Source: an uncultured Acidobacteriota bacterium
Lineage (GTDB): Bacteria; Acidobacteriota; Vicinamibacteria; Fen-336
Direction: 5' to 3'
DNA: 64,000 bases
Assembly (NCBI GenBank): GCA_963720545.1
Contig: OY970399.1
Coordinates: forward strand, 2,080,001-2,144,000
Every line of letters starts with the position of its first letter. Positions within the stretch are counted from its first letter, which is position 1. The notes beneath the pieces were generated by a model that worked only from the letters and a program-made list of their open reading frames with translations, was not told where the DNA came from and ran no database searches. Both the position numbers and the translations under genes were made by a program. Shown here piece after piece: positions 45,713-48,345 of the stretch.

Positions 45713-46834
45713 TCAGTCGTTCTCGTCCGCCGCGCGGGCCGCCAGAGACTCCAGGCTTTTTTCCCTGAACTGCCTGAATTGACCCAGCCGGATACTTTGC
45801 CCGATGGCCCTCAGGGTGTCAAGGTAATGGGCCAGGTTGTGGATGGTCATGAGGATCGCGGCGCCCATCTCTCCGGCCATGTGCAGGTGGCGCAGGTAGG
45901 CGCGGCTCGCGGTGCGGCAGGTGAGGCAGGCGCAGCGCGCGTCGGGCGGCCGCGGGTCGTCGCGGTAGCGCGCGTTGCGAATCGAGATGCGCCCCGCCGA
46001 GGTGAACAGCTGGCCGTTGCGGCCGTTGCGCGTCGGCAGCACGCAGTCGAACATGTCGACGCCGCGCGCGACCGCGTCGAAGATGTCCTGCGGCGTGCCG
46101 ACGCCCATCAGGTAGCGGGGCCGCTCCTCGGGCAGCAGCGGGTCGAGGAGCGACAGCACGCGGCGCATGTCCTCCTTCGGCTCGCCCACCGACAAGCCGC
46201 CGATCGCATGGCCTGAAAAGCCGATGCCGCTCACCTGGCGGGCGCTGCGCTCGCGCAGGTCGTCGTGCACTCCGCCCTGCACGATGCCGAACAGCCACTG
46301 GTCCGGGCGCGTGTGCGCACGCGCCGAGCGCTCCGCCCAGCGTGCGGTGCGCTCGGTGGCCGACGCCACCTCCGCGCGCTCCGCCGGATACGGCGGGCAT
46401 TCGTCGAACGCCATGACGATGTCGGCGCCGAGCTGCATCTGCACGTCCATCGAGCTCTCGGGCGAGAGATGGTGGCGCGAGCCGTCGAGGTGGCTCTGGA
46501 ACCAGACGCCGGCGTCGTCGAGGGTGCGCAGTTCACGCAGGCTCATCACCTGGTAGCCGCCGCTGTCGGTGAGGAACGGCTTGCGCCACGGCGTGAAGCC
46601 GTGCAACCCACCCAGGCTGGCGACGAGCGGCGCACCCGGGCGCAGCATCAGGTGATAGGTGTTCGCGAGGATCACCTGAGCGCCGAGTTCGTGAAGGTCG
46701 CGGTGCGTTACGGCCTTCACGGCAGCGGCGGTGCCGACCGGCATGAACACCGGCGTCTCGATGTCGCCGTGCGGCGTTTTCAGGATGCCGGCGCGCGCGC
46801 GGCCGTCCCGGGCGAGCACCTCGAAGGAGAACAT
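45713..46834 (-). CDS. tgt: tRNA-guanine(34) transglycosylase
   Basis: TPVFMPVGT, NTYHL, DSGGYQ, DEC, GLSVGE, DCVLPTR, CxCxxC zinc site. Confidence 0.98.
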   Translation of the reverse strand: MFSFEVLARDGRARAGILKTPHGDIETPVFMPVGTAAAVKAVTHRDLHELGAQVILANTYHLMLRPGAPLVASLGGLHGFTPWRKPFLTDSGGYQVMSLRELRTLDDAGVWFQSHLDGSRHHLSPESSMDVQMQLGADIVMAFDECPPYPAERAEVASATERTARWAERSARAHTRPDQWLFGIVQGGVHDDLRERSARQVSGIGFSGHAIGGLSVGEPKEDMRRVLSLLDPLLPEERPRYLMGVGTPQDIFDAVARGVDMFDCVLPTRNGRNGQLFTSAGRISIRNARYRDDPRPPDARCACLTCRTASRAYLRHLHMAGEMGAAILMTIHNLAHYLDTLRAIGQSIRLGQFRQFREKSLESLAARAADEND

Positions 46835-47074
46835 CGGTGGGTGCCGGATTTTAGCCGCTCGCCCGGGCGCCACTATCAAACGTTGTATACAAGGCATTTG
46901 TCCGCGCGGCATTCGCGGCGTCCGGCGCCTGCCGCGCAGCCGCTGCGCGCCTGGCCGCGCCGATATCGATTTCAACCAGCATCCATGCGGTCCGGCGCGG
47001 ATCCAGCGCTTTTCTTCCACAGCCTAAGTTGTGTGCGCTCTTTCACCTCGGGCGGAGCGGACGCAAAAAAAGGC

Positions 47075-47103
47075 TTGACAGGGTATGGGGCGCTCCCTAC
47101 CCT
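47075..47103 (+). promoter_or_regulatory. sigma70 promoter for the micro-ORF unit
   Basis: TTGACA-N17-TACCCT preceded by an A7 tract (UP-element-like). Confidence 0.75.
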
Positions 47104-47198
47104 ACCGCTAGTATGCCAAGAGCGCAGTCACCCGATAGGTTGTTTCGGTCGGATTGTGCGGCGCCCTTGAGTTCGCGTCCGAAAGGGGGGATCTAACA

Positions 47199-47252
47199 AT
47201 GGCGGCGAAGAAGAAGGCGGCGAAGAAGAAGGCCACGAAGAAGAAGAAGTAG
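47199..47252 (+). CDS. 17-aa Lys/Ala micropeptide MAAKKKAAKKKATKKKK
   Basis: GAAAGGGGGG SD, ATG...TAG; the paralog differs mostly at synonymous sites. Confidence 0.75.
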   Translation: MAAKKKAAKKKATKKKK

Positions 47253-47388
47253 TCGTCTTTGAAGAGGCGGCGGGCTTGCCTTCAAGCCGCACCCTGGGTT
47301 AGCCCGCAGCCCGATCTTCACCGATGGCTTTGATGCCGCAGCCGTTGAGATCTTTCGTTTTTCGGATCCGAGAGGGGTGATGAAACCA

Positions 47389-47442
47389 ATGGCAGCCAAG
47401 AAGAAGGCCGCAAAGAAGAAGGCCACGAAGAAGAAGCGCTAG
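47389..47442 (+). CDS. 17-aa Lys/Ala micropeptide MAAKKKAAKKKATKKKR
   Basis: GAGAGGGGTGA SD, ATG...TAG; paralog of 47199-47252. Confidence 0.75.
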   Translation: MAAKKKAAKKKATKKKR

Positions 47443-47464
47443 TTGGCTTCAGAAACGTGAGTAC

Positions 47465-47502
47465 AGGGGGTGGGGACGTTTCTCTCGCCCCCTCATTTTT
47501 TT
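47465..47502 (+). terminator. Intrinsic terminator
   Basis: AGGGGGTGGGG/TCTCGCCCCCT stem followed by T7. Confidence 0.75.
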
Positions 47503-47508
47503 GCCGGC

Positions 47509-48345
47509 CTAGGCCGGCTGCAGGACGTAGCGCTCGACGGCGACGGCGACCCCGTCGTCGTCACTCCCCGGCAGCACCTCGAAGCCGGCGGCCAGCAGGC
47601 CCTTTTCGGCGGTTCCCATGACGAGCCCGCGGCCCGCCGCCTGCAGCATCTCGAGGTCGTTCCAGTTGTCGCCGATCGCGAGCACCTGCTCGCGCCGCAC
47701 ACCGTGGCGCGCGCACAGCGACAGCAGCGCCTCGCCCTTCGACACCCCGGGGCGCAGCACGTCGATGAACGCGCAGCCGAGGTGTGGGTACACGGTGCGC
47801 GTCGCGAACACCTCGTCGCCGAGCGCCGCGCCGATGCGTGGAAACAAGTCGGCCATCGGCAGCAGCGCGCCGCCGAACATCACCTGCACCGGATCGCCCG
47901 GATAGTCGCGCGTCAGGTCGGAAACCACGCGCACCCCGTCGCGCGAATGACCAAGGTAGCGCGCCAGCGATTCGTGCACGCTGCGCGCACCCTCGACGTA
48001 GAGGAGACCTTCGCCGCGTGCGCCCCAGTGCACCACCGGGTCGGCATCGAGGCGCCGTCCCAGCTCGATGACCCGTGCCGCGGTCGCGCGCGGCAGCGCT
48101 CGGCAGAGGATGACGGCGCCGTCTTCCACCACCAGCGCGCCGTTGTGGAGGATGAGCGGCACGTCGAGGCCGAGGGCGTCCGCCACCTGCCGCGCCGAGG
48201 GATGGCGCCGGCCGGTGACGAGGGCGATGCGCACGCCGCGGCGCGCGGCCGCGTGCAGTGCGGCGCGCGTCCTGGGCGTGATGGTCTTGGCCGTCGTGAG
48301 CAGCGTGCCGTCGATGTCGAGCGCCACCAGCGCGACCGGGTCCAT
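47509..48345 (-). CDS. Cof-type HAD-IIB hydrolase
   Basis: ALDIDGTLL, VTGR, HNGA, SKGEAL, IGDNWNDLEM. Confidence 0.93.
   Translation of the reverse strand: MDPVALVALDIDGTLLTTAKTITPRTRAALHAAARRGVRIALVTGRRHPSARQVADALGLDVPLILHNGALVVEDGAVILCRALPRATAARVIELGRRLDADPVVHWGARGEGLLYVEGARSVHESLARYLGHSRDGVRVVSDLTRDYPGDPVQVMFGGALLPMADLFPRIGAALGDEVFATRTVYPHLGCAFIDVLRPGVSKGEALLSLCARHGVRREQVLAIGDNWNDLEMLQAAGRGLVMGTAEKGLLAAGFEVLPGSDDDGVAVAVERYVLQPA

Follow-up and report, generated by a model that had tools for sequence, protein, structure and literature searches.

Several bacterial proteins resemble histone H1 in being built from lysine/alanine (Lys/Ala) repeats: the chlamydial Hc2/HctB and Hc1, AlgP of Pseudomonas, and the C-terminal tail of mycobacterial HupB. 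Another class, represented by bTHX, bS22, bL37, and eL41, consists of tiny, very basic ribosomal proteins that gene callers routinely overlook. The subject here is a pair of open reading frames (ORFs) that invites comparison with both classes. It lies in a 64,000-nucleotide (nt) stretch of DNA, the window, from an uncultured bacterium of the Acidobacteriota (Vicinamibacteria; Fen-336; assembly GCA_963720545.1, contig OY970399.1, positions 2,080,001 to 2,144,000). The elements described by an initial annotation of the window, namely a promoter-like block, two ORFs, a duplicated ribosome-binding site (RBS), and a terminator, match the sequence base for base. The locus is a real, conserved, and unannotated pair of micro-protein genes of the Lys/Ala polycation kind. 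I propose, with a little less than even confidence, that it is a strongly expressed bicistronic micro-gene encoding peptides that bind nucleic acid by their charge and whose synthesis is controlled by the leader of the RNA.

The likeness to Hc2/HctB (PF07382), Hc1, AlgP, and the HupB tail lies in Lys/Ala(/Pro/Thr) pentads, extreme positive charge, and changes of length driven by repeats. The pentamer repeats of Hc2 are present as KKKAA and KKKAT units in peptides of 13-31 amino acids (aa), including a (KKKAT)x5 form in the relative L117. Unlike those proteins, the micro-peptides are commonly only 13-20 aa, have no other domain, and fall below the Pfam cut-off, and they are encoded by micro-genes, often in tandem, with a dedicated promoter, a folded leader, and an extended RBS. 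The proteins of the bTHX, bS22, bL37, and eL41 class are fixed in length, non-repetitive, and conserved, whereas the micro-peptides range from 13 to 31 aa, are variable, and match no NCBIfam family. Polyamines and protamines may be considered functional analogues, as small flexible polycations that neutralise and compact nucleic acids; the micro-peptides differ in that they would be made on ribosomes from a dedicated gene.

The initial annotation made conservation of frame, RBS, and peptide in related genomes a test of its reading, and the ORFs, with start, stop, and RBS, prove to be kept across an order. Each of 35 loci inspected (two of them cut by contig ends) contains a Lys/Ala ORF of 13-20 aa, located 116-124 nt after TTGACA and preceded by the RBS GAA(A/G)GGGGGGAT. 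A second Lys/Ala ORF is found in 15 of the 35 and a single ORF in 18, the two cut loci making up the rest. In 8 of the 15 two-ORF relatives the second peptide is of a different, Lys/Ala/Pro type (MKKAKKAAPKK...), and a search by peptide pattern finds tandem ORFs of 16-17 aa in four other genera as well. A covariance model of the leader, R1, matches 73 of the 78 genomes of the order (56/58, 1/1, and 15/18 by family) and 0 of 100 genomes from 16 other sampled families of the class. All 10 of the sister-family loci fetched have a Lys/Ala ORF of 14-21 aa. Behind the order-type leader (92 bits) the orthologues extend from 13 to 31 aa through gain of repeats; the forms of 31 and 30 aa (L117:466-558 and L125:466-555) are (KKKAT)x5 expansions behind a leader that is otherwise normal for the order. 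The single genome of the second family (L072, G025:C2:2833400-2834500) has the order-type 5' block and first stem (P1), then about 190 nt of other sequence, and then a single Lys/Ala ORF of 21 aa behind a site of the ORF2 type, GAGAGGGGGGAT, an arrangement that would fit a loss of ORF1. Public records that hold the element belong to Vicinamibacteria or Acidobacteriota.

The leader, 89 nt long, has two helices in which compensatory changes are seen. When folded singly, 32 leaders have in common a long stem, P1, with a conserved loop (..ACCC..GUUGA) at its tip, and a hairpin P2, GUCCA-N4-UGGAC, that ends 1-2 nt 5' of the RBS. Within alignment A3, 85.7% of the cells of the 14-pair structure are paired and 10 of the 14 pairs show compensatory changes. 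None of 500 shuffles reaches the observed value in any of five measures, and slid controls are all lower. R1 finds the leader of this genome at 76 bits (expect value, E, 3e-15; 2127108-2127217, which is 47108-47217 of the window), and relatives score about 90-110 bits, the present leader being the most diverged of the family. The locus has everything by which the element is defined across the order: a leader with P1 and P2, GAAAGGGGGGAT, a Lys/Ala ORF of 13-31 aa, and a single copy. The best Rfam 15 match in 46500-48000, on both strands, is an unrelated snoRNA model at 23.5 bits, against a gathering threshold of 50 (E 0.16).

The RBS is unusually long. The 12-mer GAAAGGGGGGAT occurs once in the genome, in which GGGGGG-N4-9-ATG is found 14 times compared to 502 for GGAGG. 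The 16S ribosomal RNA (rRNA) gene ends in GGATCACCTCCTTTCT, and so GAAAGGGGG could pair with the tail CCUCCUUUC over 9 positions, one of them G-U, assuming that the mature tail retains UUUC. A leader that ends in a hairpin abutting the RBS suggests, as a model, translational control, possibly with feedback. In most relatives the region about 3-60 nt past the stop codon of ORF1 also holds a conserved post-stop box, GCCCCGGGG, and then a terminator whose 5' arm resembles the Shine-Dalgarno sequence (GGGGGGGTGA) and whose 3' arm resembles the 16S tail (GATCACCYCCCC). Neither the box nor such a terminator follows ORF1 in this genome. A conserved helix that sequesters the Shine-Dalgarno sequence was considered and rejected: RNAalifold pairs the G-run with the C-run of the post-stop box, but both sides are invariant, providing no covariation. 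In 16 folded transcripts the partner of the Shine-Dalgarno sequence varies amongst the leader, the ORF, the post-stop box, and the far terminator. In the minimum-energy fold from this genome, with a z-score of only -1.9, the partner is 47340-47370.

The promoter is likewise a matter of conservation. TTGACA-N17-TACSCTACSSCTAGTATG has a single occurrence in this genome. When at most 2 mismatches are allowed, 57 of the 59 family genomes (24 of 25 genera) have precisely one copy each, and the reversed control has 0 matches. The A-run 5' of the -35 hexamer is seen in 5/5 aligned genomes, and a GC-rich stretch separates the -10 hexamer from the presumed start of transcription, which would lie near 47110. 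A simple consensus scan of 46700-47800 called 0 promoter sites, because TACCCT agrees with TATAAT at only 3/6 positions, and the assignment of the promoter therefore rests on conservation. The candidate promoters upstream of 16S rRNA in this genome bear no resemblance to it.

Sequences from RNA libraries cover the unit. Part of the stretch is present in 24 listed runs, 20 of which are on record as RNA (11 studies), and four runs were examined. They yield contigs that match 47110-47397 (1 difference, 1 gap), 47133-47445 (4 differences, 2 gaps), 47234-47438 (0 differences), and 47393-47571 (0 differences). Four studies contributed the contigs that cover the unit, and two of these contigs run from ORF1 into ORF2. 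The one that starts at 47110 does so seven bases past TACCCT, although the start of a contig cannot prove the start of transcription. Many of the 40-nt pieces in the runs are Lys/Ala sequences that belong to other organisms. The four runs leave the tgt and HAD flanks largely uncovered, a fact that carries no evidential weight.

How far do codons bear out a peptide? The codon analysis took in 111 ORF instances, 50 of them unique, all of 8-21 aa and from loci that have the 5' block of the order. For the 21 unique orthologues of 17 codons amongst them, column entropy averages 0.42 at the third position versus 0.18 at the first and 0.11 at the second, with variation concentrated in Ala and Pro codons. 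Of 24 unique stretches, 20 have a distance from the ATG to the post-stop box that is divisible by 3. The initial annotation saw purifying selection on the peptide in the differences between ORF1 and ORF2, four at third positions of Ala codons and one codon changed from AAG to CGC. That claim survives in part: composition and charge are kept, while sequence and length (13-31 aa) drift. On the codon evidence, the conserved property is composition and charge rather than exact sequence. The near-identity of ORF1 and ORF2 in this genome may reflect recent conversion instead of long purifying selection, because the second ORF is so often of another type in relatives.

The coordinates of the unit are given in Table 1. 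The -35 and -10 hexamers are separated by a 17-nt spacer and the two ORFs by 136 nt. The RBS contexts, TCCGAAAGGGGGGAT..CAATG for ORF1 and TCCGAGAGGGGTGAT..CAATG for ORF2, are duplicated along with the ORFs. A degenerate peptide pattern matches only these two places in the 4.09-Mb (megabase) genome, with 0 matches to reversed-pattern controls.

Table 1. Features of the micro-gene unit (window coordinates)
Feature	Position	Strand	Conservation or other basis
Upstream box TTCCACAGCCTAAG	47015..47028	.	46-47 nt 5' of the -35 hexamer; at family and sister-family loci with equal spacing
A7 tract (47065-47071) and -35 TTGACA (47075-47080)	47065..47080	+	TTGACA is part of the pattern that is single-copy in 57/59 family genomes
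-10-like TACCCT (47098-47103), ACCGC, and TAGTATG block	47098..47115	+	Conservation of the block TACSCTACSSCTAGTATG
Folded 5' leader: P1 stem with conserved apical loop; P2-type hairpin abutting the RBS	47110..47180	+	Covariation
Extended Shine-Dalgarno sequence of ORF1, GAAAGGGGGGAT	47181..47192	+	Unique in the genome; (near-)invariant across loci
ORF1, 17 aa, MAAKKKAAKKKATKKKK, 10 Lys	47199..47252	+	Orthologous ORFs in 35/35 loci
Intercistronic spacer with GC-rich inverted repeat (47266-47276 / 47301-47311)	47253..47369	+	Spanned by two RNA-library contigs
Shine-Dalgarno sequence of ORF2, GAGAGGGGTGAT	47370..47381	+	GAGAGGGG-type context also 5' of the second ORF in relatives
ORF2, 17 aa, MAAKKKAAKKKATKKKR, 9 Lys and 1 Arg	47389..47442	+	Second Lys/Ala ORF in 15/35 loci
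Intrinsic terminator: 11-pair hairpin (47465-47493) and T7 (47496-47502)	47465..47502	+	Terminator prediction

The genes on either side, TGT (PF01702, 502 bits) and a HAD hydrolase (PF08282, 147 bits), are both on the minus strand. The terminator is followed by the convergent HAD gene, which ends at 47509, and no gene on the same strand lies downstream, so the unit stands alone, as had been supposed. The initial annotation also called for a check of synteny, and the arrangement is indeed kept in most relatives: a convergent HAD gene follows the unit in 29 of the 34 further family loci and in 10/10 sister-family loci, and TGT is upstream, often with one gene interposed.

That gene callers miss such ORFs was suspected from the start and is borne out by protein collections. 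Look-ups of families and proteins were made with natural 20-aa orthologues and with the natural 21-aa reading of ORF2 from a GTG start. Two 20-aa orthologues and ten relatives of 23-43 aa are absent from a collection of about 15 billion proteins, and the 20-21-aa forms match 0 Pfam families (E up to 10) and 0 NCBIfam families. Relatives of 38-43 aa from Verrucomicrobiota give weak matches to Hc2 (PF07382), at 14-17 bits, below the cut-off of 40. The literature, searched through titles and the openings of abstracts with subscription journals outside the coverage, yielded no description of micro-genes of this sort.

Similar genes extend beyond the order. A scan of species genomes for GGGGGGAT-N5-10-ATG-NNN-GCN-AAR-AAR-N9-AAR found at least 119 stretches, and 80 loci were fetched. 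Thirty of these are from Acidobacteriota/Vicinamibacteria, with ORFs of 13-31 aa, and 43 are from Verrucomicrobiota, mostly Chthoniobacterales, with ORFs of 19-89 aa. There is one each from Kiritimatiellae (107 aa) and Myxococcota (71 aa, Lys/Ala only at the start), one further bacterial locus of 32 aa, and four that are unrelated or cut. The relatives thus form a series of lengths up to 107 aa. All of the verrucomicrobial matches listed have GAAA 5' of the G-run, even though this lies outside the search pattern; the 12 upstream regions that were read have a hairpin just upstream, mostly CCGC-N4-GCGG; and in five verrucomicrobial genomes the 12-mer occurs 6 times, 5 of them at a Lys/Ala gene. 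The peptides are of the same type, with AAA and AAG codons mixed. R1 also matches verrucomicrobial loci (27-36 bits), but the pattern by which the loci were selected overlaps the 3' third of the model, making the argument circular, and these matches were not used as evidence of homology. In five of the verrucomicrobial genomes (L196-L200) the Lys/Ala gene has the same neighbours, which, judging by eye from their N-termini, we take to be coaBC, a gene of the inositol-monophosphatase family, and ispF, as candidate names only.

Within the phylum, the peptide pattern matched 40 of 301 Acidobacteriota genomes. Of 30 loci fetched from these, 14 have free-standing Lys/Ala ORFs of 12-39 aa with promoter-like and terminator-like flanks and, mostly, GGAGG sites. 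One locus from another family (L216, G397:C113) encodes the exact ORF1 peptide, MAAKKKAAKKKATKKKK, behind the 12-mer GAAAGGGGGGAT, with a leader and promoter that are both AT-rich and otherwise unlike those described here, and with AAA codons mixed in. Repeat expansion also separates two genomes of another acidobacterial family, in which the gene measures 35 aa and 105 aa (L211 and L212).

The proposal for this locus may now be stated in full. A sigma-70-type promoter, with its A-tract and consensus -35 hexamer, would initiate RNA near 47110. The 89-nt folded leader would end in a hairpin abutting an unusually long Shine-Dalgarno sequence, both 17-codon ORFs would be translated to give peptides of net charge about +10, and the terminator would close the RNA. 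The peptides would work through charge and not through a folded shape. Nucleic acid is their most likely ligand, the chromosome first, in which case they would amount to the Lys/Ala tails of histone-H1-like proteins reduced to a minimum and set free. The folded leader probably determines, or adjusts by feedback, how much of them is made. Peptides of 13-31 aa behind one leader and about 100 aa in other phyla disfavour a fixed binding pocket and favour non-specific binding of polyanions. DNA would be the first choice as target, with rRNA and polyphosphate also possible. Translation, high abundance, the target of binding, and any autoregulation I infer from these features of the locus and its relatives.

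A number of considerations weigh against this proposal. Contigs from RNA libraries cannot prove transcription, strand, ends, or level. Pairs of the same length differ at 474 non-synonymous versus 341 synonymous codons, so strong purifying selection does not act on the exact sequence. The Lys codons are invariantly AAG within the order, and the leader, the post-stop box, and the terminator are conserved like the ORF, so part of the constraint acts on RNA. The genome has five genes of the HU/IHF family (PF00216) and domains of polyamine-type enzymes (two matches to PF02784 and two weak matches to PF01564). These rule out the idea that the peptide substitutes for missing polyamines or HU; it therefore fills no obvious gap. 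The neighbours, tgt and the HAD phosphatase, give no functional clue, and the evidence fits DNA, RNA, ribosomes, or polyphosphate alike as the target.

What else might the peptides be? They could be tiny ribosome-bound proteins, in the manner of bTHX, bS22, bL37, and eL41, or counter-ions on the surface of rRNA, with the leader serving as an autoregulatory operator as in the operons of ribosomal proteins. Their size, charge, and invisibility to annotation are those of the class, and a strong A-tract promoter, a GC-rich stretch from the -10 hexamer to the start, a very strong RBS, and a structured leader befit an abundant product linked to growth. However, a length that ranges from 13 to 31 aa and low-complexity repeats are poorly suited to a defined pocket in rRNA, no family in NCBIfam or Pfam is matched by the 20-21-aa forms, and the locus lies outside the operons of ribosomal proteins, under a promoter unlike the 16S candidates. 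I consider this account unlikely, though it deserves to be taken seriously. It is quite improbable that the locus acts chiefly through its RNA, as a regulator or a titrant of ribosomes in which G-rich and C-rich boxes matter and translation only controls folding or stability. Such an RNA would make sense of conservation at the level of nucleotides in the leader, the 5' block, the post-stop box GCCCCGGGG, and terminator arms that resemble the Shine-Dalgarno sequence and its complement, as well as of an RBS complementary to the whole 16S tail and of the pairing that RNAalifold draws between the G-run and the post-stop C-run. It would not explain why start, stop, and frame are kept in 35/35 loci while third positions of Ala and Pro codons wobble, nor why the type of peptide persists across phyla while codons and leaders differ. 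The sequestering helix, moreover, lacks covariation and changes partner amongst the 16 transcripts, and the RNA matches no Rfam family.

The peptides might bind a different polyanion, chiefly the polyphosphate of granules, as is reported for the H1-like AlgP of Pseudomonas (PMC9239181). The composition equals that of AlgP-type tails and the hosts are soil bacteria, yet there is no ppk or other polyphosphate gene at the locus, and this explanation, by analogy, must be judged very improbable. There is next to no chance that the ORFs encode leader peptides through which an attenuator, responding to lysyl-tRNA, regulates an adjacent gene. Each ORF is indeed a short run of AAG codons behind a structured leader, but what follows is the terminator and then the 3' end of the convergent HAD gene, as is also the case in most relatives, and relatives with a single ORF end in a terminator as well. 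The initial annotation had already thought an attenuator unlikely, and the downstream arrangement agrees.

To return to charge-acting peptides under the control of a leader, one may go further and suppose that the hairpin and the following GAAAGGGGGGAU, whose complementarity to the 3' tail of 16S rRNA extends over the whole tail, form an initiation module dedicated to oligolysine genes. It would drive the production en masse of "peptide polyamines", and exert feedback on it by way of the folded leader. These would be a widespread and hitherto overlooked class of very short gene products, perhaps of very high abundance, that govern the charge balance in the nucleoid and ribosomes of slow-growing soil bacteria. 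Vicinamibacteria and Chthoniobacterales have the combination, as does another acidobacterial family, and amongst the genomes checked only oligolysine genes use it. The idea is a speculative one and decidedly unlikely as a whole.

If the peptides are made as the layout of the unit suggests, then Acidobacteria that abound in soil retain, throughout an order, one copy of a gene with a strong promoter that encodes a polycation of 13-20 residues. The known bacterial proteins that coat nucleic acids would extend down to the size of peptides, and a new folded leader, with an RBS as wide as the 16S tail, would join the known elements of translation control. Standard proteomics, with its trypsin digestion and length cut-offs, would be blind to a possibly abundant component of the cell. 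Direct testing is feasible with synthetic peptides and cultured relatives.

A few other features of this genome may be mentioned. Two larger genes encode proteins that match no Pfam family: one of 179 aa (C1:898931-899470), acidic in its N-terminal half and rich in Lys/Ala over the roughly 100 aa of its C-terminal half, and a basic protein of 68 aa (C1:3511728-3511934) that ends in a short Lys/Ala tail. Upstream of the micro-gene, about 170 nt on the minus strand, from the start of TGT to the upstream box (46841-47014), are GC-rich and contain several inverted repeats of 10-14 nt, with no match in Rfam. The box itself, TTCCACAGSCTAAG, is directly 3' of a terminator-like hairpin (46994-47010), and its distance from the -35 hexamer is kept order-wide. 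A second near-copy, at C1:2353213 in this genome, lies upstream of a TTGACT promoter and shares the preceding GATCCAGC..TTTCTT. The box may be the site of a regulator or else the -10 hexamer or 5' end of a divergent promoter on the minus strand.
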